From NCBI GenBank assembly GCA_045126595.1, contig JBGVOS010000040.1, positions 2,467 to 66,466 of the forward strand: DNA of 64,000 nt, in the 5' to 3' direction. This DNA is from Bacteroidaceae bacterium (GTDB taxonomy: Bacteria; Bacteroidota; Bacteroidia; Bacteroidales; Bacteroidaceae). Below the pieces are notes generated by a model. It saw nothing but the letters and a program-made list of their open reading frames with translations, ran no database searches and was not told the DNA's origin. The position numbers and the translations under genes were made by a program. This document shows, piece after piece, positions 38,404 through 63,497 of the stretch; position 1 is the first letter of the stretch; each line of letters opens with the position of its first letter.

Positions 38404-40800
38404 TTATGCTTTACGCCACAACCCCCTACGTTTGCGTTTTTTGTTGTTCCCGTAGCCATAGCCATAACCGTAACCATAGCCGTAGCCATAGCCGTAGCCA
38501 TAGCCATAGCCGTATTTACGTTTACGTGGATCACCGCCATTGAGAATCAAGGCCATATTGTTCAGTTTCTTACTGTCATAGAGGTTTTGCAGGTCGGGCA
38601 GCTGACGCTTGTCAAGTTTGCCAATACGTACCACAAACATCGTCAAGTCAGCAATGCGATTGGCGATACTTGCATCGGCCACGATTCCCACAGGCACACT
38701 ATCAGCAATGATATAGTCGTATCGTTTGCGCAATTCAGCAAACAGCATCTCCAGTCGGTCGCTCATCAGCAGTTCAGCCGGGTTCGGAGCCACTGTACCC
38801 GCTTGCACGATATCCACGCGTTCACACACATGGTCCGGATGTATGAGTTCGTCTACCGTCAGTGTCGGGTCGGCAAGGTAATTGGTTACGCCCAATTTCC
38901 CTCTTCGTCCATGTCCCGTAAGCGTACCCTTACGCAAGTCGAGGTCCACCATGCACACCTTCTTGTTGGCAAATATCAAGCTCATCGCCAGATTACGGGT
39001 GATAAACGTTTTACCCGCACTCTCATTGAACGAGGTGAGCGTGATAACCTTCATCTTCGGGTCACCCTTAATCATAAAGGCCATGTTCGTACGCAAGATA
39101 CGGAACGCCTCCGAGAGCATGTCGGTACCCTCTTCCCGCACCACAATCGGTGTTTTGTGCTTCTTGTTGGCCTTCACCGTCTCGGTATCTACGGGAATCT
39201 CGCCCAAGAAAGGCATATTCACCTCATTCTCTATATCCTTATAATTATGTACGCGTGTGTCAAGGAAGAGTATCATGAGGAAGATAACCGCCGGTATGGC
39301 GATACCCACCAGGATACCCACCAGGATAATACGATTGCGCGAGGGGGCTATGGGCGACATGCTACCCTCGGCACTGTCGATAATCCACGCATTGTCATTC
39401 ACCATCGCCTGCGACAAGGCATTCTCTTCGCGTTTGTTGAGCAAGAACATGTACAGGCTCTCCTTGATCTTCTGCTGACGCTCGATAGAGAGCATCTGCT
39501 TCTGCTTGGTAGGTATGCTCTGCACGCGGGTTTGTGCCGCGTTCTCCCTTCTTTGCGCCTCATCCAGTCTCACATCCAGGCTCACGATCATATTGTCCAC
39601 CGCACTGATGATGCTCTGTCTCATCGCCTTCAACGAACCGTTCAACTCCTCCACGATAGGGTTGCGCTCGCTGCTCTCATCCAACAGCTTGTCGCGTTTC
39701 AGCTTCGTCGTGTTGTACTGCATGATCTGGCTCTCGATATTCATATCGCTGATGCCCGTGTTGGCCGGTATCAGGTCGGCGCTCTTCGAGTTATCCGTCA
39801 GGTACTCCTTGATGTATCGTGCCACCTGCAGTTGCGTCTTGGTCTCCATCACCTCTGAGCTGTACTTTTGCGACTCGCTCGAGTACTGTCCTGCCGCAGA
39901 GCTCAGGTCGATGATCTGGTTCTCCTTCTTGAAGCTGACGATTTCGTCCTCCACGCCACCAAGTTCCTTCTCAATCACCGCCAGACGTCCATTGATAAAG
40001 TCGGTGGTATTCTGCACCATCAGGTTCTTGTCGTCTACCGCCTGGTCGTTATACACCACCACCATGGTGTTCAAGATATTCTGTGCACGCAGTGCATTGT
40101 TATCCTTCAATGCCAACTTCAGGATAGAGCCCTCCTCAGACTCCTGACGGATACCGACAGCCGCTCTATAGCGGTCGGCCACCCATTCGAGGGGTATCTT
40201 CTCCACCTTTACAGCCTCGCCATACCACGACTCCCCATAGTGTGCCGTAGGTGCAATCACCACCTTCTGCCCATGCAGTGTAATGGTATCGTTCACCTTG
40301 AGGGTATACACTTGCGTATCCTCCGCTCCCGCCAGATGCGACACCTCGATGGTATTCTCATCGACCGGAGTGACGGTGAATGTAGCGTAGCTGTTCTGCA
40401 TCGCCTCGGGGAAGGCCACGCTGACAGGCGAGTTGGTATACAGTTCAATCCAGCGGAACTTAATCTTCGTCAGGTAGTTGACGTTCGCCTTGGTACGACG
40501 CACCGTCTCGCGCATCAACTTCTTGGAGCGGAACTGCAGGATCTCGTTCGTCACGTTCACCTTGTTCACCAAGTTGTCATAGCGGTCAAATCCAGCCGAA
40601 TAGGTATTCTTATTGGCGGGGTCCTTGATGATTACCGTAGCCGACTGGTAATAGGTAAACGGAGTATGCGCATACTTCAAGTAGGCATATCCTCCGCACA
40701 ACATCACCGACAACACAAACCACGGCCACTTCGAGAGAAGATAAAAGAACAGGTCCAAGATATTCAATCCCTGTTCCCTATTGTTGTTCGCCTTATTCAT
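38404..40800 (-). CDS. Polysaccharide co-polymerase / BY-type tyrosine autokinase (Wzc/GumC-like) with (YG)11 C-terminal tyrosine cluster
   Basis: 798-aa ORF with Wzz-type N-terminal TM and periplasmic coiled regions. It has Walker A SFNESAGKTF, Walker A'/B (VDLDLRKG, IIADSVP) and a C-terminal YGYG... tail followed by a basic tail. Confidence 0.9.
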   Translation of the reverse strand: MNKANNNREQGLNILDLFFYLLSKWPWFVLSVMLCGGYAYLKYAHTPFTYYQSATVIIKDPANKNTYSAGFDRYDNLVNKVNVTNEILQFRSKKLMRETVRRTKANVNYLTKIKFRWIELYTNSPVSVAFPEAMQNSYATFTVTPVDENTIEVSHLAGAEDTQVYTLKVNDTITLHGQKVVIAPTAHYGESWYGEAVKVEKIPLEWVADRYRAAVGIRQESEEGSILKLALKDNNALRAQNILNTMVVVYNDQAVDDKNLMVQNTTDFINGRLAVIEKELGGVEDEIVSFKKENQIIDLSSAAGQYSSESQKYSSEVMETKTQLQVARYIKEYLTDNSKSADLIPANTGISDMNIESQIMQYNTTKLKRDKLLDESSERNPIVEELNGSLKAMRQSIISAVDNMIVSLDVRLDEAQRRENAAQTRVQSIPTKQKQMLSIERQQKIKESLYMFLLNKREENALSQAMVNDNAWIIDSAEGSMSPIAPSRNRIILVGILVGIAIPAVIFLMILFLDTRVHNYKDIENEVNMPFLGEIPVDTETVKANKKHKTPIVVREEGTDMLSEAFRILRTNMAFMIKGDPKMKVITLTSFNESAGKTFITRNLAMSLIFANKKVCMVDLDLRKGTLTGHGRRGKLGVTNYLADPTLTVDELIHPDHVCERVDIVQAGTVAPNPAELLMSDRLEMLFAELRKRYDYIIADSVPVGIVADASIANRIADLTMFVVRIGKLDKRQLPDLQNLYDSKKLNNMALILNGGDPRKRKYGYGYGYGYGYGYGYGYGYGYGNNKKRKRRGLWRKA
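38449..38514 (-). repeat. Hexanucleotide microsatellite (GCCRTA)11 encoding (YG)11 of the tyrosine kinase tail
   Basis: Counted directly: cccgta gccata gccata accgta accata gccgta gccata gccgta gccata gccata gccgta. Confidence 0.9.
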
Positions 40801-40898: not shown

Positions 40899-41702
40899 TC
40901 ACTTCAACTGATTCATCCACCACATCATCGAGGTCACAGTTGATGCCACACTGAGCATCAATGTACCATATTGCAGTATCCTATCTTCCGAATCTTTCTT
41001 CTTGAACTTAGGTTCTACATAGACGATATCGTTCTGCTGCAGGTAGAAGCAGGGCGATTCAAACAGGTCCTTGCTACGCAGGTCATGGAAGAACACCTGT
41101 CTCGTCTCTCCCATCTCACGTATCACGGCCACCCGATTGATGGCAGCATTGGGAGCCAAGTCCCCCGCATTAGCAATCGCCTCCAGCAGTGTTACCCGGT
41201 CTCCATCGGCCGTCTTCACACCATTACTACCCACAGCACCCAACACTGTATACTTGAAGTTCATGATATCCACCATCACCAGGGGATTGTTGATATACCC
41301 TCCATCGATGATTCGATTCTTTATCAAGTCTGTCACTTCGCTGATCGTGAGTCCCTCCACATGCAGTGTACCCAGCATGGGGAAGTCGATATTCCCCTCA
41401 ATATCCACTCGGTATCCCTTCTCCTTCATGCTCGGAGCCGATGTCGACACTCTGCCATCTTCACCCACATTGTATGCACCAGCCTGGATATTGAAGGGAA
41501 CCGCCAACTCCGGGTTCTTGCTCGACACTACGATGCTCAACTTATCGTCACGATGCACCACGGGGTCATGCTTCTGCTCGATAGGATAGAACTGTCCCAT
41601 CTCCATATCTTGCAGATAGACAAACTTTTTGCGTGAAGCACATGATGACATTGCCATCACCGCTACCAGCATCAGCAGTATATTCTTCGTCTTGTTTTTC
41701 AT
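40899..41702 (-). CDS. Polysaccharide export outer-membrane lipoprotein (Wza family)
   Basis: Lipobox MSSCAS, a Poly_export-type N-domain (...KLSIVVSS.NPEL..PFN) and an SLBB-like region. Confidence 0.88.
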   Translation of the reverse strand: MKNKTKNILLMLVAVMAMSSCASRKKFVYLQDMEMGQFYPIEQKHDPVVHRDDKLSIVVSSKNPELAVPFNIQAGAYNVGEDGRVSTSAPSMKEKGYRVDIEGNIDFPMLGTLHVEGLTISEVTDLIKNRIIDGGYINNPLVMVDIMNFKYTVLGAVGSNGVKTADGDRVTLLEAIANAGDLAPNAAINRVAVIREMGETRQVFFHDLRSKDLFESPCFYLQQNDIVYVEPKFKKKDSEDRILQYGTLMLSVASTVTSMMWWMNQLK

Positions 41703-41745
41703 CTCGTTACAATTACTATTTATATAAATACAGTATACGAATTTG

Positions 41746-41753
41746 CAAAATTA
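41746..41753 (-). promoter_or_regulatory. -7 promoter box upstream of wza (internal promoter for wza-wzc)
   Basis: ttgCAAAATTAgtg, 44 nt from the start. Confidence 0.5.
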
Positions 41754-41840
41754 GTGTTTTTTAGCGAAATATCTGTTTTTTATAGTAAAAAAGATGAAAG
41801 TTTAACATTGAATGATTAATGGTTAACGATTAACGAAGAC

Positions 41841-41905
41841 TCTAAACACTAAACACTAAACCCTAAACACTAAACACTAAACACTAAACACTAAACACTA
41901 AACCC
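41841..41905. repeat. Heptamer array (CTAAACA/CTAAACC)~9
   Basis: ctaaacactaaacactaaaccctaaacactaaacactaaacactaaacactaaacactaaaccc. It contains the stop codon and last codons of the HprK-like gene. Confidence 0.9.
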
Positions 41906-42760
41906 ATTTCCACAAACCACCACCGCTTCCCTATCGGGCCGGCATGCCATCTTCCCTATCGTCACATGCTCGGCGAGCCAGATGAGTTTGTCACATAGGG
42001 CAGCATATAGTCGCTTGTCCTGTTTGATTACGGCACACCCGGGTACCAATGCGATGAATGCCTCCACTCCAGTTAACGTATGGAACTGGTTTACAGGCGC
42101 CTGCTCCAGTCGCACGACACCTCCTATCGGATAGCACACATCCTTATAGCAGGGTGTCTTGCCACTCCAGGGCGAGCCATACACGTATGCCCTCCCCTCC
42201 TTGACTCGCAGGATAGGGTTATCATCGTTAATATGTTCGGTTCCCGCGATATGCTGCAGCCATAGCGCCGCATGCGTACTCTTTCCCGTTCCGCTCTTGC
42301 CGAGAAACAGGTATCCCTTCCCTTTATATGCTACCGCCGAGGCATGTATACCTATTCCCTCCCGATGCAATATCGCCTGAGAGAATACGATGCGCAGCAT
42401 CGAGCACAACATCTGCCCCACGTAAGGGTCTTCCCACTGCATCGCCGCCTTCACGTAGCTGAACTCCCTATCGGCTATCAGCGTATGGGTCAGTGGCGCC
42501 AGTTCATGATGCGCCTCTATACAATAGCCATGCTCCGTACTCCACACCTTCACACACCCCATATCGTTCACCGACTCGTCGAGCAACACCGCTCCCTCGC
42601 CACGCTCTACGGCCGTTGCCGTAGCATCGAATCGGAAGAGAAGAGATCCGTCACTCTCGCCACAATATACAAAGCCACGGAACGAAGGCAACAACTCTCC
42701 CTCGTCCATGCCTTGTGGCAGTACCACATCGAATCGATAATCAGCGACTTTGTAGTTCAT
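41891..42760 (-). CDS. HprK-related (HPr kinase C-terminal-like) P-loop kinase
   Basis: 289-aa ORF with the P-loop LFLGKSGTGKSTHAAL in the HprK C-domain context. It belongs to a cassette with PqqD-like and nucleotidyltransferase genes. The last 6 codons and the stop lie in a heptamer array. Confidence 0.7.
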   Translation of the reverse strand: MNYKVADYRFDVVLPQGMDEGELLPSFRGFVYCGESDGSLLFRFDATATAVERGEGAVLLDESVNDMGCVKVWSTEHGYCIEAHHELAPLTHTLIADREFSYVKAAMQWEDPYVGQMLCSMLRIVFSQAILHREGIGIHASAVAYKGKGYLFLGKSGTGKSTHAALWLQHIAGTEHINDDNPILRVKEGRAYVYGSPWSGKTPCYKDVCYPIGGVVRLEQAPVNQFHTLTGVEAFIALVPGCAVIKQDKRLYAALCDKLIWLAEHVTIGKMACRPDREAVVVCGNGFSV

Positions 42761-42816
42761 AGAAGGGATGAAGGGTTACAGGGGGAAGGGTTACGGGTTA
42801 CAGGGGGAAGGGAACT
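42761..42816. repeat. G-rich degenerate array (GAAGGGTTACRGG)
   Basis: agaagggatgaagggttacagggggaagggttacgggttacagggggaagggaac, immediately upstream of the HprK-like start codon. Confidence 0.8.
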
Positions 42817-42825
42817 TCCGCATTC

Positions 42826-43088
42826 GTGTCATCTCGAGAGCATCGAGAGATCTCGCAAAGTTCGTGTCAGTGAGTCCAAAGTAACTTTTGCAGCGAATGT
42901 AGCCGAACTAAATGCAAGGCACTAAAAGGAGTTGGTGTTTTCATAGCCCCAGCGCGGGAGAAGTGCTAAAGCACACTCCTCAGGGGAGATAAACCTCCCT
43001 TTGTCGTCAATGCGGAGCGCTCGGCTAGTCCGAGAACCGACGCTATCATACCGCGTCGGCGGTGCTCCGCTTTGTCGAGATGACAGAC
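42826..43088. repeat. Long (263-bp) member of the same family with terminal inverted repeats GTGTCATCTCGAG / TCGAGATGACAGAC and a structured insert
   Basis: The left end gtgtcatctcgagagcatcgagagatctcgcaaag is nearly identical to the left end of the copy at 60029. The right end is ctttgtcgagatgacagac. It lies between the HprK-like and NTase genes. Confidence 0.7.
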
Positions 43089-43108
43089 TGTCCCTTAATC
43101 CCATAACG

Positions 43109-43150
43109 CTACACACTAAACTCTAAACACTACACACTACACACTACACA
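43109..43150. repeat. Heptamer array (CTAAACT/CTACACA)
   Basis: ctacacactaaactctaaacactacacactacacactacaca. It overlaps the NTase stop codon. Confidence 0.85.
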
Positions 43151-44217
43151 TTCCCAACAGCCAACCGAAGCACCATCCACCAAGCCTCCTTGCGTGCATA
43201 TCGCCATGCAAAGCCCCTTCTGCGCCAGAAGGCCAGCAACGTCTGCCCCTTGCGTCGCCATCCACGCAGCTCGGTGTTATGTTGTGCCTGATGTTGACCG
43301 AAGTTACCTCCTTCGCCAATGATGGTCTCCAAGGGAGCTGTATCCTCTTTATCGAGGTCAGCATAAGGCTGCAAATTCTCGGGGAGCCCGATATATTTCA
43401 CCAGATAGGCATGCAGCAATCGGCTCCACCGCTCCATGCCCGCCTCGGCATACACCTCGCGCAACTGCGCAAGCTTGATCTTATCTTGTACTTTATAATA
43501 GGTACGCGCGATATCACACAACTGACGAAGCCCCACCCCTGCCCCTACGGCATGCTTCATGATATGTGCGTTCTGCATCAGCAGGTTGAGGGTCGGCATA
43601 GGCACCCTCATCGCAGGACGTCCCGTGTCATCGTCTTCGAGCTGTTCGCCCCTCCATATGATGGTCAGGTCATCGGCATAGCGTTTCTTGGACGGTGTAG
43701 CGATATCCACCATCACAGCATGGTGCTCGATGGCCACTCCCTGGAATGTATAACACAGGCTACCGTCGGCATGTACCTCACAGGCCATGCCCGCTGCCCG
43801 CACGACCTCTGCCGCCTTCTTCCTCTCCTCGACGTAGAAGTACAGGTCAATGTCGCCACACTCCCTGCATAGTGGTGCCTCATACATCGCAGCCACCCCC
43901 TGCCCCTTCATCACGATGGGATGCAGGCCACGCTGCTCAAGCCGTTGCAGCAATGCCGCCAGTGCCGCATTCGCCTGTCGGTTGTTCCGCTCTATGCGGT
44001 CGACCTCGGCCACCCAGGGGAGCAGTATCTGCATCGGGGGCATCAGCGCCTCGGGCAACAGACCGATACCTCGATATACAGTTCCCGTCACCGTCTGCCT
44101 GCGCGCCTCCTTGAGCAGTTGGGTCCACTCCTCGTCACTGAGCGGAAATAGCGCCAGCTCCTCTATGGGCTGCTCCCATAGTCCTGCTCTCAATAATATA
44201 AATAGAGCCGTCTCCAC
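43144..44217 (-). CDS. Uncharacterised nucleotidyltransferase family protein (pol-beta-fold; NTP_transf_5-like)
   Basis: 357-aa ORF with ...MKGQGVA..Y..P..RECGDIDLYF, a GDxD-type NTase motif. Its architecture is that of the NTase found beside PqqD/HprK-like genes. Confidence 0.65.
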   Translation of the reverse strand: METALFILLRAGLWEQPIEELALFPLSDEEWTQLLKEARRQTVTGTVYRGIGLLPEALMPPMQILLPWVAEVDRIERNNRQANAALAALLQRLEQRGLHPIVMKGQGVAAMYEAPLCRECGDIDLYFYVEERKKAAEVVRAAGMACEVHADGSLCYTFQGVAIEHHAVMVDIATPSKKRYADDLTIIWRGEQLEDDDTGRPAMRVPMPTLNLLMQNAHIMKHAVGAGVGLRQLCDIARTYYKVQDKIKLAQLREVYAEAGMERWSRLLHAYLVKYIGLPENLQPYADLDKEDTAPLETIIGEGGNFGQHQAQHNTELRGWRRKGQTLLAFWRRRGFAWRYARKEAWWMVLRLAVGNV

Positions 44218-44221
44218 TCTT

Positions 44222-44249
44222 CCGTTAACCGCTAACCGTTAACCGTTAG
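44222..44249. repeat. Heptamer array (CCGTTAA/CCGCTAA)x4
   Basis: ccgttaaccgctaaccgttaaccgttag. It encodes the PqqD C-terminus GLTVNG* on the minus strand. Confidence 0.85.
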
Positions 44250-44504
44250 CCCAAACTCTCTCCACTCCTCTAACATTACCGCCACATCGTGGACAGCCTG
44301 TTCGCGTGCCACGTCATACTCCTCGCACAGGTAGTCCACCATCTCCCCGTCCGTGAACTCGCGTCCCTCGAAGGCCTGCCACAGCGTCGCTGCCGTCTCG
44401 TTCAGGGTATATACGTCCACCATATTTACCTGTTCGGTGTCGGCATCCACGATCATATAGTTGCTGCCCATCTTGCGCAGCATCAAATTCTCTTTCAGTT
44501 TCAT
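44232..44504 (-). CDS. PqqD-family (RRE-type peptide-binding) small protein
   Basis: 90-aa ORF: ...YTLNETAATLWQAFEGREFTDGEMVDYLCEEYDVAREQAVHDVAVMLEEWREFGL, the PqqD-like winged-helix pattern. Confidence 0.75.
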   Translation of the reverse strand: MKLKENLMLRKMGSNYMIVDADTEQVNMVDVYTLNETAATLWQAFEGREFTDGEMVDYLCEEYDVAREQAVHDVAVMLEEWREFGLTVNG

Positions 44505-44513
44505 ATCTATTAA

Positions 44514-44633
44514 GTGTGTAGGGTGTAGAGTGTAGGGTGTAGGGTGTAGAGTTTAGGGTGTAGAGTAGCTCCGCGATGTAATTCCTCCGGATAACAGCAC
44601 TAAACTCTAAACTTTAAACACTAAACTCTAAAC
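44514..44633. repeat. Inverted pair of heptamer half-arrays (GTGTAGG/GTTTAGG ... spacer ... CTAAACT)
   Basis: G-arm at 44514-44567, 30-nt spacer, C-arm at 44598-44633. It fills the gap between the GT4 stop and the PqqD start. Confidence 0.85.
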
Positions 44634-45733
44634 TTTTTATATATCTCCAATGCCCCCGCTATCATCCGTTCCTTGACGAAAAGCTTCTCGTAGCGCAGTC
44701 GTGCTCCCGTGGCATACACCTCGTAGGCATCGCGATCCTTGGTGATGGCCAGTATGGCCTCGGCTATCTCCTTGGCCTCTTCGGGCGTCACGTTGAGTCC
44801 CGATATGCCATGCTCGTTCACCCACGACGTGCCGCTCCCCGGTATGCGTGTCGCTATCACCGGCCTGCCACAGCTCATCGCCTCTATCTGTACGATGCCG
44901 AAGGCCTCGGTCTTCTGCACCGAGGAGAGCACAAACAATTCGCTCGCCGTGTAGTAGGCCGGCAGCTCCTCGTCCTTGACAAACCCGAGGAGCTTCACCT
45001 TCTCCTCCAGGTGCAGCTTCTCAATCAGCGCCTGATGCTCCTCTCTCAAGGGTCCCGTACCTCCTATCACGATCACATAGTCGTCGGGGAGGTATTGGGC
45101 TGCCTCTATCAAGTATTTATATCCTTTATAGTGCACCAGTCGTCCCAGCGAGAACACCATCTTACGTCCGCGATACACCTCGCGCAGCCGCTGTGCCCCC
45201 TCGATGTCGGCGGGCATCTCGTCCACGCCGATGGGCAGGTATGTCACCTTGTGCTGCACCTCGCGCAGGTCCTCCGACTCCTTCACGTAGATGGGCGTGG
45301 TTCCCACGATCAGGTCGGCACGGCGGATGAGCCACTTCTGGAACGGACGGTACAACTCCATCAACCGTTTCTGTCGTATGATATCGCTGTGCCAGTGCAA
45401 CACCACCTTACCGCGGTATCCCGAGAAGAAGAGCGCCATGCACGCCATCGGGTCGGGGTGATGCACATGGATGATGTCATACTTGTTACATATCCTCCAC
45501 AGCGTCGTTATCATCGACGGAGCGATCATTGTGCCTGCTACCTCCATCCAGGTGTGGCAGCACATCAGCTTCGCCCGTTCCCCTACCGTGAGGGTACTTC
45601 CCTTTCCCTTGACCGATGCACACAGCATATCACATTCTATGCCCTGCTTGTCGAGTCCTTCCATCAGGTCATACTCCACCTTCTCTACTCCACCCTTGAT
45701 GGGATAGAATTTACCTAATTGTAGTATTTTCAT
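44621..45733 (-). CDS. Glycosyltransferase family 4
   Basis: 370-aa ORF with a GT-B fold and the EAFGIVQIEAMSCGRPVIAT (E-X7-E) motif. Confidence 0.88.
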   Translation of the reverse strand: MKILQLGKFYPIKGGVEKVEYDLMEGLDKQGIECDMLCASVKGKGSTLTVGERAKLMCCHTWMEVAGTMIAPSMITTLWRICNKYDIIHVHHPDPMACMALFFSGYRGKVVLHWHSDIIRQKRLMELYRPFQKWLIRRADLIVGTTPIYVKESEDLREVQHKVTYLPIGVDEMPADIEGAQRLREVYRGRKMVFSLGRLVHYKGYKYLIEAAQYLPDDYVIVIGGTGPLREEHQALIEKLHLEEKVKLLGFVKDEELPAYYTASELFVLSSVQKTEAFGIVQIEAMSCGRPVIATRIPGSGTSWVNEHGISGLNVTPEEAKEIAEAILAITKDRDAYEVYATGARLRYEKLFVKERMIAGALEIYKKFRV

Positions 45734-47146: not shown

Positions 47147-47518
47147 TTATTGTTTCCTTAAGGTTCTAATCAATCGACTTAGTTGGCACTCGATAGAAAT
47201 AACCTTTGAGTTTAATACCCTATAGTTCTCGTCGTCAAGGTATCCTATTTCATGAGATATCAGCAGTTGTGTCTCTACTTCATAGGCCGACCCTAATGCG
47301 ATATCCAAGAAATGGGCAAATTCTGTATCCGATGGTCTTGAAGCCCCTTCAGCAATGTTGGATGGTATAGATACGGCTGCTCGTTGAAGTTGGTCGCATA
47401 TACCTTTTTTCTCAAACCAAGGCATCGCACTTGTTTGCTTATACATCGCGACAGATAGCATCACGGCATCATGCCACACTGGATACTCTTTAAAATTACG
47501 AGCTTTCTTTCCCTTCAT
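47147..47518 (-). CDS. Four-helix-bundle protein (23S rRNA intervening-sequence protein / Avd-like family)
   Basis: Starts at the ATG (cat at 47516-47518) giving MKGKKARNFKEYPVWHDAVMLSV..Y.... The motif QLQRAAVSIPSNIAEG and ...AYEVETQLLIS are the family signature. The ORF-track version begins at an upstream GTG. Confidence 0.85.
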   Translation of the reverse strand: MKGKKARNFKEYPVWHDAVMLSVAMYKQTSAMPWFEKKGICDQLQRAAVSIPSNIAEGASRPSDTEFAHFLDIALGSAYEVETQLLISHEIGYLDDENYRVLNSKVISIECQLSRLIRTLRKQ

Positions 47519-47715
47519 TCTTTCGTCATCGTGCACGCTTATGTGCTTTTGTTATATTTCGCAGTTGCAAGCGGCTTTCCCCTTATTATTTTCGTATAGC
47601 CTTTGCTGTCCTTCGTGGCGGCCTACCGCCCTTCGTACACACTTTGTGTGTTATCGTTCACGCTTGTGTACCATCGTGAAGCTATCTTCGTTTTCGTACA
47701 GCTATGCTGTTTTGG
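47519..47715. repeat. Array of ~20-nt units in the opposite orientation: TTCGT(A) + variable hairpin
   Basis: cttcgt-GGCGGcctaCCGCC, cttcgt-ACACACtttGTGTGT, ttcgt-ACAGCtatGCTGT, ttcgt-AGCCACtgcGTGGCT, TTCACG..CGTGAA. Confidence 0.88.
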
Positions 47716-60237: not shown

Positions 60238-62454
60238 TCACTCCAAAGCGCTGAGGCGGGCGGTCTCCTGCTGGCGTAGCTTGATGTCGGTGTGGGTGAG
60301 CAGGATGACATTCCATCCACGTATGTTGTCATGACGGCGGGGCTGGTAGCCCAGGCGGTTCATCCAGATGGCGATGGTGCGCGGCAGGAGTGGGGTCTTC
60401 ACACCGATGTTGATGGTCTCGATGATACGTGTGGCGGTGTAGAACTCGCCCACCTCGTGCGGCTCGGGACGGCGGAAGTAGGTCTGTATGAGCTCACACT
60501 CCATGTTGGGTTCCTCGAAGTGGTGGTTGTGGCACTCGAGCTCGGCATTCTCCTCGGCGGTAAACCAATAGGGGAATCCTTCACACCATAGGGCATAGGC
60601 CTGGGCATAGAGGCCCTCGTAGGGGATGGGATGATCGTAGGGCGAGTCGATGCTGTCGACCATGAAGGGGAGCCAGCGACGGTTGCCGGTGAGGTCGGTG
60701 AGGAAGCGGGGGTTGTTGCCCGTGGCACAGAACGAGGCGATATGTTCGCGACGCTCGCGGTAACGGGCATAGGCGGCACGCTCGTTCACCGAAGGGTCGG
60801 TGGTGAGGGCCTTGAGCTGGTTGAGCGCGCGAGGCTTCAGGTTGTCGAGCTCCTCGAGGGCGATGAGGGCCATCTCGGTGAGCTCCAGACGGTCGTCCCT
60901 GTCCATGCGATGGGCAAAGTTGCGGGCCGAGAAGTAATCGCGCAGCACGGGAGGTAGCAGGTGGCGCATGAAGGTACTCTTGAAGATACCTTGCGAACCG
61001 ATATAGGTGAGTATCTCGTGGTTGGTCTTGTCGGGATCGAACCATGCCGCCACCATGCCTACAAACCACTTCCTGAAGTAGCGGTTGTGCATCTCCTGCG
61101 AGCAGCCGGTGACATGGACGCGAGAGGCGAGCTCTTCGATGTAGTCGTATCCATCCCACGGGGAAAGGCTGGTCATATACTCGCGCATGGGGTGGTACTC
61201 GGGGTAGAAATCGCTCTCGATGATGATGTAGAGGTCGGAGAGACGCAGCCTACGGCCGGTGTCGAGGGAGAAGGCGCGGTAGAGCGAGTGGACGTGGCGG
61301 TCGGTGAGCTCGGACCATAGTAACGATGACGAAAACGAAGACGAAGACTTTTTCTCCAATTTATCATCGTTATGGTCATCGTACAGCTCTTGGGCGGTGG
61401 TGGCTGGCGGTGGACAATGGGTACCTATCTCCCACTTGCGACTGATGACGTTGTGGCGTATGCGGACCTCCTTCTGGGTGAGGTAGTCCTGTATCTCGGC
61501 TACCGTGGCACAGCTGTCTTTCTTCTCACGAGGCAACTGCCGAGTGGCATGCTCGGTGGTCTGCTGGTAGCAGGAGCGGACGATGGAGGCGACGTCGTTG
61601 CCCGCAGCGGCATAGTCGGTAAAGCGGGCAAGGGCCCATGCCGTACAGTCGGTCTCGGACACTCCGTAGCGGTTCATCAGGTAGCAGGCCTGCGAGATGT
61701 AGCGGTTGTGCTCGCCGGGGATGTAGCATACGCCACGGCGCTCCAGCTGCTCGCAGACATGCGACTCGGCAGCCTCGGCCGTACGCACCTGGCGTGGACG
61801 ACCCGAAGGGCGCTTGGCCTCGAGCTGCACCTCGAAGGGCACAGCAGCAGGGTTGTAATGGAGCGTGGGATCATAGGCGGCGCCCGACAGACGGGTGGCA
61901 TTCTTGCACAAGGGGTCGGTGGCAAGGCCGGTGAGGGTCTCGTAGTAGGCGTTGACCTGAAGGAAGGCGGACTTGTACTCGGGGAATGAGGAGCGGTGAA
62001 CGGGAAACGGGGAGGGGGCAGCGGGGAGCGGATGAGCGGTTAGAGGGTGAGCGGATGAGGGGTGAGCGGGGAGCGTATACCGCGCCACGACACGCACGCC
62101 CTGTCCCGAGATGGTGGTATAGGCAAGCAGGGTGTGGGGGTCGTGGCCGACGAGCGTCAACACGCGCGGCATATCGTCGGGCGACACGTGGTCGATATCG
62201 ACGAGGGTGAGCCCGGTGAAGGCGGCGATATGGTCCTTGCGCTTGCCACCCTCGAAGCGTACGGCCACGCTGAAGCAGGGCATGCGGCGTTTGTAATGCT
62301 GGGCACCGGCCTTATCGCCGATACTGCGATAGTAGCGGTGCTTGTCGGTGAGGTCACGTAGCGAAGCGTCGGTGCGCATCATCTCTACCAGAGCGTCGAG
62401 CTCGATGGGCATGGGGGACTCGTCGGTCCACCCGTTGAAAAGGGATAGTTGCAT
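60238..62454 (-). CDS. VirE/primase-like protein (BT4734-type N-terminal domain + VirE P-loop domain)
   Basis: 738-aa ORF. The N-terminus ...MPCFSVAVRFEGGKRKDHIAAFTGLTLVDIDH is typical of the BT4734-like domain. The C-half resembles virulence-associated protein E. Two low-complexity in-frame inserts are present. Confidence 0.75.
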   Translation of the reverse strand: MQLSLFNGWTDESPMPIELDALVEMMRTDASLRDLTDKHRYYRSIGDKAGAQHYKRRMPCFSVAVRFEGGKRKDHIAAFTGLTLVDIDHVSPDDMPRVLTLVGHDPHTLLAYTTISGQGVRVVARYTLPAHPSSAHPLTAHPLPAAPSPFPVHRSSFPEYKSAFLQVNAYYETLTGLATDPLCKNATRLSGAAYDPTLHYNPAAVPFEVQLEAKRPSGRPRQVRTAEAAESHVCEQLERRGVCYIPGEHNRYISQACYLMNRYGVSETDCTAWALARFTDYAAAGNDVASIVRSCYQQTTEHATRQLPREKKDSCATVAEIQDYLTQKEVRIRHNVISRKWEIGTHCPPPATTAQELYDDHNDDKLEKKSSSSFSSSLLWSELTDRHVHSLYRAFSLDTGRRLRLSDLYIIIESDFYPEYHPMREYMTSLSPWDGYDYIEELASRVHVTGCSQEMHNRYFRKWFVGMVAAWFDPDKTNHEILTYIGSQGIFKSTFMRHLLPPVLRDYFSARNFAHRMDRDDRLELTEMALIALEELDNLKPRALNQLKALTTDPSVNERAAYARYRERREHIASFCATGNNPRFLTDLTGNRRWLPFMVDSIDSPYDHPIPYEGLYAQAYALWCEGFPYWFTAEENAELECHNHHFEEPNMECELIQTYFRRPEPHEVGEFYTATRIIETINIGVKTPLLPRTIAIWMNRLGYQPRRHDNIRGWNVILLTHTDIKLRQQETARLSALE

Positions 62455-62457
62455 GGA

Positions 62458-62768
62458 GGTTAGGGTTTAGGGTTTAGGGTTTAGAGTTTAGTGTTTAGGG
62501 TGTAGGGTTTAGGGTGTAGGGTGTAGGGTGTAGAGTGTAGAGTTTAGTGTTTAGGGTGTAGGGTGTAGGGTTTAGGGTTTAGGGTGTAGAGTTTAGAGTT
62601 TAGGGTTTAGTGTTTAGAGGTTAGGGGGTAGGGTTTAGAGGTTAGGGTTTAGTGTTTAGGGTTTAGAGTTTAGTGTTTAGGGTGTAGGGTGTAGGGTTTA
62701 GGGGTTAGTGTTTAGGGGTTAGGGTTTAGGGACCGTTAACCGTTAACCGCTCACCGCTCACCGTTAAT
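62458..62768. repeat. ~270-bp degenerate heptamer array (TTTAGGG/TGTAGGG/TTTAGAG/TTTAGTG, roughly 40 units) followed by CCGTTAA/CCGCTCA heptamers
   Basis: Read directly from the sequence. It begins 4 nt upstream of the VirE-like start codon. It includes runs such as GGGtgtaGGGtttaGGGtgtaGGGtgtaGGG. Confidence 0.92.
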
Positions 62769-63143: not shown

Positions 63144-63284
63144 CTTTTACACCCCTTATAGGGAGAAAATAAATATCAATATATAATAGTATCACGATAT
63201 ATACCTATTATATCGACTATAGGGAGTCGCCCCGCGCGGGCCGACCGTGGCGTTGTGGCAGGGAAGCGGGGAGCGGGGAACGGC

Positions 63285-63390
63285 CCCTACACCCTAACCC
63301 CTAAACACTACACACTAAACCCTACACACTAAACCCTAAACCCTAAACACTAAACTCTAAACCCTAAACTCTAAACACTACACGCTAAAC
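63285..63390. repeat. Heptamer array in the opposite (CCCTAAA/CACTAAA/CACTACA) orientation
   Basis: cctacaccctaacccctaaacactacacactaaaccctacacactaaaccctaaaccctaaacactaaactctaaaccctaaactctaaacactacacgctaaac. It is inverted relative to 62458-62731. Confidence 0.9.
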
Positions 63391-63403
63391 AAAAAAAACA
63401 ATG

Positions 63404-63497
63404 GAGTGAACGCCGAAAATCACTCTACTGCTTTTCGGAAAACAATAGAGTGAACTTCAAAAATCAGTAGAGTGATTTTTAGAAAACATTAGAGCGA
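63404..63497. repeat. Iteron-like GAGTGA motifs phased at 22 nt
   Basis: GAGTGA at 63404, 63448 and 63470, and GAGCGA at 63492. An inverted copy (tcactc) sits at 63420-63425. Each lies in a shared context aacaatRgagtgaac / gtagagtgat / ttagagcgat. Confidence 0.7.

Follow-up and report, generated by a model that had tools for sequence, protein, structure and literature searches.

Linear polyphosphorylated peptides (LPPs) have recently been described as a family of RiPPs (peptides made by the ribosome and modified after translation), with the Paenibacillus alginolyticus proteins LppA, LppK, LppB, LppS, LppD and LppN (Popov et al., Nat Commun 2026;17:6633, PMC13381572). The corresponding gene clusters of Bacilli, situated within loci for capsular polysaccharide, share a core set made up of an HprK kinase, a discrete PqqD RiPP recognition element (RRE), a TIGR02228-type signal peptidase (SpI), an NTP_transf_5 protein and an MsbA-type pump, the domain table of the authors listing NTP_transf_5, PqqD, TIGR02228 and TIGR02203 (PMC13381572). 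YxxPxVLxHQxIxFETxxS is the motif of the precursors. On heterologous expression LppK adds up to four phosphates to Ser3 of the core and LppS cuts after Thr-1, and deletion of lppN is without effect; in the crystal structure of LppB with the leader, N33 holds a kink at the leader Pro in place and D70 forms a hydrogen bond with the leader Tyr (PMC13381572). According to the authors, LPPs are 'restricted to the Bacillota', and their signal-peptidase network contains two Bacteroidota entries, both of them peptidase-ABC fusions (PMC13381572). Here we analysed three consecutive genes on a 64,000-nucleotide stretch of DNA from a Bacteroidaceae bacterium (assembly GCA_045126595.1, contig JBGVOS010000040.1), called the window below. 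We propose that this trio is probably the modification core of a Bacteroidota version of the LPP pathway, built into a conserved Wza/Wzc exopolysaccharide operon.

Related gene sets have been described in other contexts. Haft's HprK-related systems link a kinase of this kind to PqqD and PF14907 partners, which is the same three-gene theme. The SynChlorMet (SCM) cassette comprises ScmC (HprK-related), ScmD (PqqD-related) and the radical S-adenosylmethionine (SAM)/SPASM proteins ScmE and ScmF (NCBIfam TIGR04248-04251). For pseudomycoidin, PsmN is needed for the addition of one or two hexoses to the phospho-Ser, and its D134A/D136A mutant is inactive (PMC6993621).

The trio of the window consists of:
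44232 to 44504, minus strand: PqqD-family RRE (LppB-like), 90 amino acids (aa); PF05402, E 1.3e-14, above cut-off.
43144 to 44217, minus strand: NTP_transf_5 nucleotidyltransferase (NTase) of the pol-beta fold (LppN/PsmN-like), 357 aa, GTG start; PF14907, E 1.7e-38.
41891 to 42760, minus strand: P-loop kinase of the HprK/PEPCK fold, ScmC family (LppK-like by role), 289 aa; Walker A motif GKSGTGKST.

All three open reading frames (ORFs) are intact and follow one another on the minus strand. The NTase, encoded by the sole PF14907 gene of its genome, scored 133 bits against that family (cut-off 31), and the metal-binding motif GDIDL can be read in its sequence. The kinase had no family-level match in a local Pfam-A search, which returned sub-threshold PEPCK_ATP alone (E 0.0022), and its NCBIfam matches, to ScmC, to the HprK-related kinases A and B and to PEPCK, were weak; PF27840, 'ScmC', is the precomputed Pfam family on its relatives. 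The motifs GKSGTGKST, NDDNP and PWSGKT are invariant across 12 relatives. An AlphaFold2 model with these 12 relatives as input reached a pLDDT of 91, and a Foldseek search of the model against the PDB returned the HprK/P catalytic domains 1kkl and 1jb1 as the best matches (E 6e-6, probability 1.0), followed by ATP-dependent PEPCK. By this model the window protein is HprK-like at the fold level, and its kinase activity is a prediction. The earlier note on this DNA, made from the letters alone, had called the three proteins PqqD, NTase and HprK-like kinase; in view of PF05402, PF14907 and the HprK/P and PEPCK matches of the kinase model, its description was right.

The kinase belongs to a large family, with 7,278 matches among the 8,000 candidates scored (90%-identity clusters). 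Gene neighbourhoods were compared in seven related loci of four distinct locus types (93-47% identity) and in 80 named genome loci. By tree placement, the approximately 90 loci with context are all from Bacteroidales or Sphingobacteriales, outside the Bacillota to which LPPs were said to be restricted. Two of them bear other phylum labels: the kinases of the contigs labelled 'Rickettsiales' (L013) and 'Oscillibacter' (L073) are nested in the Phocaeicola and Prevotella clades, and these are probably mis-binned Bacteroidales contigs.

Two arrangements were found. In the capsule-type loci the order is glycosyltransferase (GT) of family GT2 - Wzy-like - three GT4 - (Bac_transf) - PqqD - NTase - kinase - Wza - Wzc. 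In Bacteroidales loci of this type Wzc is often followed by a small ORF (54-77 aa) with the gene of a lipoprotein of about 800 aa, by OmpA, and by an S24-like peptidase of about 157 aa with an ATP-binding cassette (ABC) exporter of about 550 aa. In the Sphingobacteriales (Pedobacter, Sphingobacterium) the genes are contiguous, as GT4 - S24 - PqqD - NTase - ABC - kinase - Wza - Wzc. The second arrangement lies away from polysaccharide genes and consists of kinase - S24 - PqqD, at times followed by NTase and ABC. The earlier note had suggested a survey of whether the trio accompanies wza/wzc in other genomes, and it does: for 44 capsule-type kinases the downstream sequence extends over 1.5 kb or more, and 42 of these have Wza no further than 8 kb away, 36 as the very next gene, compared with 3/36 second-type kinases with Wza within 8 kb. 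The 31 fully covered capsule-type loci contain PqqD in 28, NTase in 28, S24 in 16, ABC in 11 and a small peptide gene in 17 cases; for the 26 fully covered second-type loci the figures are PqqD 26, S24 25, NTase 2 and ABC 7. The S24-like peptidase is thus found in 41 and the ABC gene in cis in 18 of the 57 fully covered loci. The second type forms a derived clade (support 100/100) when 88 kinases are placed in a maximum-likelihood tree, and the capsule-linked state is paraphyletic. The cassette had been called an orphan, which is correct locally in the window; its relatives carry peptidase, exporter and peptide in the same locus.

The small ORFs of the related loci encode peptides of 41-73 aa with a YxxP...E...S leader. 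A hidden Markov model (HMM) built from ten post-Wzc ORFs (type-1 peptides) detected approximately 27 genes in capsule-type loci and a few beside second-type modules. Four residues are invariant in an alignment of 21 peptides: the Tyr and Pro of YxxP, a Glu that follows ten residues later and, after six more, a Ser. The remainder is variable and acidic and mostly ends in [S/T]-[W/F]-[D/E]. In a large protein database the family comprises 243 clusters, all annotated 'hypothetical protein' and with no Pfam domain, and NCBIfam holds no model for type-1 peptides. A leader of the YxxP...E..S kind at the N-terminus, as required of LPP precursors, is present in cis in the relatives, and at C156 in the genome of the window. 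A cluster of conserved ORFs of about 60 aa just upstream of PqqD was also considered as precursor and rejected, as it is a W/C/R-rich alternative frame of the Bac_transf gene.

The gene after the type-1 peptide (e.g. L003:14520-16961; C156:24801 to the contig end) encodes a lipoprotein, the C-terminal half of which is homologous to bacterial phosphatidylinositol-specific phospholipase C (PI-PLC; profile versus PDB, E 8e-22); the member of locus L007 has a fimbrillin-like Mfa_like_1 domain in Pfam. The equivalent of PI-PLC Arg69 is invariant, and the position of the catalytic His82 is Ala/Gly in one alignment shown, for which reason the lipoprotein may be a binder rather than a cleaving enzyme. 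In an uncultured Bacteroides genome (G451, locus L044) 15 type-1-like peptide matches were seen at about 496-581 kb of contig C1, 13 of them clustered around a second kinase copy (522.6 kb), which looks like a multi-precursor locus.

The recognition and processing proteins resemble those of LPP at the residues that matter there. Asn35 and Asp73 of PqqD are invariant in 16 family members and are aligned to N33 and D70 of LppB, although the family profile matched the lasso RREs TfuB1 (8e-7) and TbiB1 first, and then LppB (9x8z, 0.015). The S24-like proteins match TIGR02228; the copy of the window's own genome is 28% identical to LppS over 93 residues (E 2e-7), and Ser41, His79 and Asp94 are aligned on the catalytic S29, H68 and D93 of LppS. 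The ABC exporter of the related loci is MsbA/CydCD-like.

In the window, scans with the peptide HMM and for the YxxP motif found no precursor-like ORF, and neither an S24 peptidase nor an ABC exporter adjoins the trio; tblastn matches to these were obtained in the genome on other contigs only. These searches bear out the local absence of precursor and exporter reported before. The assembly contains two kinase and two PqqD genes. The second copies form a module (C123:9610-11320, locus L010) of kinase, S24/SpI-like peptidase and PqqD, with no NTase, lying directly after a Mur-ligase gene. Its kinase is 36% identical to the window kinase, and the stop codon of the kinase gene overlaps the start codon of the S24/SpI-like gene, after which comes the second PqqD. 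Each of the 24 other genomes of the genus also has a second-type kinase. The closest ABC homologue is located on C142 and is 49.5% identical to the cis-encoded one of a Bacteroides locus. With the trio, the parts are spread over at least four contigs, two of them being:
C123:10482-10958: S24/SpI-like peptidase, beside the second kinase and PqqD.
C156:24557-24778: candidate precursor, 73 aa; peptide HMM E 5e-5, and 1.6e-13 with a wider profile. It directly precedes a homologue of the lipoprotein of about 800 aa.

Within the genus, 6 of 25 genomes have a capsule-type kinase (G000, G001, G008, G013, G019 and G022), and a full-length type-1 peptide (E <= 2e-10) was found in exactly those six (6/6 versus 0/19). 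The Fisher probability of about 6e-6 overstates independence, since the six species may be related. In G001 the peptide gene is on the contig of the kinase, 5 kb downstream, and in Bacteroides genomes with a capsule-type kinase the peptide is encoded in cis (E ~1e-19). This co-retention in 6/6 genomes suggests that peptide and kinase are in use. Compared with a 93%-identical relative (L001), the ratio of non-synonymous to synonymous substitution rates (dN/dS) is 0.14 for PqqD, 0.29 for the NTase and 0.14 for the kinase, against 0.04-0.06 for Wza and GT4; purifying selection acts on all three genes. The sequence of the trio was found solely in DNA metagenome runs.

From what was observed here, namely protein families, kinase fold, conserved residues of RRE and peptidase, synteny and co-occurrence, the following pathway can be drawn up by analogy with the described systems. 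PqqD would bind the YxxP leader of the type-1 peptide (about 55-75 aa) as an added beta-strand, and the ScmC/HprK-fold kinase would phosphorylate the invariant Ser after the leader, whose LPP counterpart is the core Ser3 with its several phosphates. The PF14907 enzyme would then extend the phosphate, in the way that hexose is added by PsmN in pseudomycoidin. The archaeal-type signal-peptidase-like protein would remove the leader by cutting just upstream of the invariant Ser, and the MsbA-like ABC transporter would export the product. In the genome of the window, RRE, NTase and kinase would come from the capsule locus, the peptidase from C123 and the exporter likely from C142, and the 73-aa peptide of C156 would be the best substrate candidate.

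Several points weigh against this reading. In the window's genome the genes for substrate, peptidase and exporter lie apart from the trio, and their assignment in trans is consequently one by homology and co-occurrence; the C142 ABC gene, surrounded by housekeeping genes, may not be dedicated to the pathway. The candidate precursors always travel with the large lipoprotein gene, and could for that reason belong to the lipoprotein rather than to the trio. Similarity to LPP proteins is remote, with a profile E value of 0.015 between the RRE and LppB and 28% identity for the peptidase. The kinase is of the ScmC family (PF27840) and not a classical Hpr_kinase_C, and the spacing from the leader Glu to the Ser is E+6 in the Bacteroidota peptides as opposed to E+4 in LPP. 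LppN was inactive in the sole LPP experiment, and one related strain is apparently without the NTase gene, as judged from a metagenome contig discussed below. Finally, the Bacteroidota members are known from their genes, and their chemistry is a prediction.

The earlier note had drawn another conclusion, namely that the cassette makes no RiPP and instead phosphorylates or nucleotidylylates an export protein, e.g. the tail of Wzc, or a polysaccharide intermediate, with PqqD as adaptor. The position of the trio between the initiating transferase and wza, strict, ancient and common to two orders, agrees with this, as do the lack of precursor, peptidase and exporter in the window and the paraphyly of the capsule-linked arrangement, which is apparently the older one on the tree. 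It leaves unexplained, however, the peptide, peptidase and exporter genes and the capsule-free second module: 36 kinase - S24 - PqqD modules form a derived clade away from polysaccharide genes, the Asn and Asp with which the YxxP leader is read are conserved in PqqD, and YxxP peptides occur in cis in 17 of the 31 fully covered capsule-type loci, with the exact match to the kinase in the genus in addition. Since a leader-peptidase-like gene and an exporter also recur with the trio, and the set as a whole matches LPP, we do not retain that conclusion and regard an action on the export machinery as unlikely.

The neighbouring genes of the window concerned here are:
44621 to 45733, minus strand: GT4 glycosyltransferase, directly upstream of the cassette; Pfam Glycos_transf_1 and Glyco_transf_4.
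40899 to 41702, minus strand: Wza-type outer-membrane polysaccharide export protein, next after the kinase; PF02563 and SLBB_2.
38404 to 40800, minus strand: Wzc-type co-polymerase/BY-kinase; GNVR and AAA_31 domains; conserved after Wza in the relatives.

Orthologues of the GT4 (E ~1e-140 to 1e-250) hold the same position in most capsule-type loci, and an OmpA-family protein is also encoded among the flanking genes. The Pfam domains thus confirm the Wza/Wzc and glycosyltransferase neighbours named before. On the minus strand, TAATTTTG at 41746-41753, 44 nucleotides (nt) upstream of the wza start codon, matches the Bacteroides -7 promoter consensus TAnnTTTG; given this match, wza may be transcribed from its own promoter downstream of the cassette.

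A bolder extension of the LPP-like pathway would join peptide and polymer. The phospho-Ser peptide would then be the covalent partner of the Wza/Wzc polysaccharide and not a free signal or antibiotic: the PF14907 enzyme would place a first sugar or sugar-phosphate on the peptide phosphate, the neighbouring glycosyltransferases would extend it, and the polymer would have a ribosomal peptide as its primer, anchor or cap, with the PI-PLC-like lipoprotein of the cell surface binding or cleaving the phosphodiester link there. Such a role would account for three observations: the constant site of the cassette, between the initiating transferase and wza, in two orders; the silence of LppN in a host without the polysaccharide genes; and the association of the precursor with a lipoprotein of the phosphodiesterase fold. 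We nevertheless consider it a long shot.

The trio might also be a stranded remnant, decaying or without coordinated function, left behind when the locus lost its precursor, peptidase and exporter. Neither the window nor the 93%-identical L001 has S24, ABC or peptide genes at the locus, and in both the gap between NTase and kinase carries an insertion. This gap measures 383 bp in the window (42761-43143) and contains the following element:
42827 to 43085: element of 259 bp between the NTase and kinase genes, bounded by 11-nt perfect terminal inverted repeats (TIRs), TGTCATCTCGA and TCGAGATGACA.

In L001 the corresponding gap (L001:9486-9920) has no TIR element and carries a 144-aa 23S_rRNA_IVP/bAvd gene, whereas in the other relatives the NTase and kinase genes abut or overlap; a TIR element in the window and an IVP gene in L001 indicate that the same spot was hit by two different small insertions. 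Moreover, the NTase has a dN/dS above that of its neighbours, and a 19.5-kb contig of metagenome run X2 joins the arrays on both sides of the NTase and skips the gene. In this contig position 43150 is joined to 44251 with 12 other letters between them, the NTase ORF being left out precisely, from one flanking 7-nt array to the other; another X2 contig holds the NTase. This could reflect strains with and without the NTase, or an influence of the arrays on the assembly. Against a remnant stand the three intact ORFs with invariant catalytic motifs, dN/dS values of 0.14-0.29, far under 1, the presence of every missing part elsewhere in the genome and the co-retention of peptide and kinase in 6/6 genomes. 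With intact motifs, purifying selection and this co-retention, decay appears highly doubtful.

That the trio belongs to a paeninodin-type lasso cluster with cyclase and B2 protease elsewhere is hardly tenable: the PqqD profile is nearest to the lasso B1 proteins TfuB1 and TbiB1, and the pair of kinase and PF14907 is typical of paeninodin and pseudomycoidin clusters, but the B2 protease family PF13471 is absent from all 25 genus genomes, the window's included, an SpI-like peptidase stands in the place of B2, as in LPP, and no cyclase-like or cyclase-sized conserved neighbour was seen in about 90 loci (the cyclase was not searched genome-wide, where housekeeping AsnB would confound). The lack of lasso machinery reported from the window thus extends to the genus as far as B2 is concerned. 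A linked precursor plus a lasso cyclase in relatives had been named as the sign of an ordinary RiPP cluster; half of this pair, the precursor, was found, and no cyclase.

The TIR-bounded element had been reported as a miniature inverted-repeat transposable element (MITE) of 263 bp. Its 11-nt TIRs do bound an element, at 42827-43085; as a multi-copy family it was rejected, since one full-length copy was found in this 80%-complete assembly, and elsewhere partial matches of about 26-93 nt. We therefore write 'TIR-bounded element', the MITE label being plausible. Other features of the intergenic DNA are:
42922 to 43116, minus strand: ORF of 64 aa, GTG start, within the TIR element and a heptamer array; no Pfam match.
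44505 to 44620: intergenic gap of 7-nt tandem arrays (CTACACC and GTTTAGA types; repeat families D2 and D3), with no peptide ORF.
41839 to 41905: 7-nt array (CTAAACA)n, repeat family D3, overlapping the kinase stop codon.

The 64-aa ORF, which matched neither Pfam nor the peptide HMM and lacks the YxxP motif, is probably neither a gene nor a precursor. Reading of the sequence agrees with the earlier note that the 44505-44620 gap is filled with 7-nt arrays and has no peptide ORF. Arrays of this kind (GTTTAGN and CTACACN with their complements) make up nearly every intergenic gap of the locus (41811-41931, 43071-43177, 44496-44654, 62405-62761 and 63270-63418), often overlapping stop codons, and large inverted arrays occur at 62.4-63.4 kb of the window. 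An Rfam search of 41600-44700 found no family. The window has a 23S_rRNA_IVP/bAvd-type gene of its own at 47147-47536.

A second type of peptide was observed in the genus, with the same M.KK.Y..P leader and a conserved C-terminus RRG[S/D]WG[N/D]LW. In the window's genome these type-2 peptides are encoded at:
C75:43985-44161, minus strand.
C86:38822-38992, plus strand.
C140:5000-5182, minus strand.
C154:1837-2022, minus strand.
C68:10509-10673, minus strand.
C11:7661-7816, minus strand.

Each of the four copies with context examined lies beside the gene of a secreted protein of about 735 to 1840 aa, three of these being longer than 1290 aa. There are 1-29 copies per genome in 24 of the 25 genus genomes and none in 16 genomes of other families; weak matches were obtained in 4/4 genomes of other genera with the second module only, compared with 0/6 genomes with the capsule type only. 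Type-2 peptides are possibly the substrates of the second kinase module.

LPPs were defined in 2026 solely on Bacillota. The present analysis indicates that gut and rumen Bacteroidales and also Sphingobacteriales have the same toolkit in abundance, more than 7,000 90%-identity clusters belonging to the kinase alone. A fixed place in the Wza/Wzc operon ties the question of phosphopeptide function to polysaccharide export, in organisms with well-developed capsule genetics. For RiPP genome mining it matters that an RRE cassette that looks 'precursor-less' can draw on parts encoded in trans; the architecture of the trio is not covered in a Bacteroidales RiPP-mining paper.

Among the known systems, the lasso peptides paeninodin and pseudomycoidin share with this locus the tailoring enzymes, as noted earlier: there, an HprK-like kinase (PadeK, ThcoK, PsmK) phosphorylates a Ser of a precursor with a YxxP or WxxP leader, PF14907 is represented by PsmN, and D134 and D136 of PsmN correspond in kind to the GDIDL motif of the window NTase. 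Unlike in these clusters, lasso cyclase and B2 protease are lacking, the leader peptidase is a serine SpI-like enzyme, and the phosphorylated residue would, by analogy with LPP, probably be at the leader-core junction and not, as in paeninodin, at the C-terminus. The SynChlorMet cassette is similar in that kinase relatives fall in Pfam ScmC, TIGR04249 is the best NCBIfam match of the kinase and PqqD matches TIGR04248 weakly. The scores are far under the cut-offs (24.9 versus 125 bits for TIGR04249, 17 versus 100 for TIGR04248) and no Radical_SAM/SPASM gene was called within +/-10 kb in the seven related loci of four locus types, and membership was rejected. The HprK-related kinases A and B (TIGR04352 and TIGR04355) are weakly related P-loop kinases, with 15.1 and 19.2 bits against a cut-off of 200; the kinase is not a member of these systems, the catalogued but unassigned kind to which the earlier note pointed.

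LPP is the closest. Common to both are a discrete PqqD RRE, in which the Asn and Asp that bind YxxP are kept, an HprK-fold kinase, a PF14907 transferase, this being also the Pfam family of LppN in the table of LPP domains, an archaeal-type SpI-like peptidase and, in part of the related loci, an MsbA-like exporter in cis; peptide leaders in which Y, P, E and S are invariant and follow one another as in LPP; the lack of a macrolactam cyclase; and a location in a capsular or exopolysaccharide locus. Unlike LPP, the present system is found in the phylum Bacteroidota, its cores are acidic and end in [S/T]-[W/F]-[D/E], where LPP cores are basic and rich in Gly, Asn and Pro, and it has a fixed site in a Gram-negative export operon, with wza-wzc directly downstream. 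The precursor is paired with a PI-PLC-like lipoprotein, a paralogous second module without NTase exists, and the parts are scattered in the genome of the window. The system is thus known in kind, from the LPPs of 2026, and differs in its occurrence in Bacteroidota, its kinase subfamily, its precursors, its fixed site and its lipoprotein.

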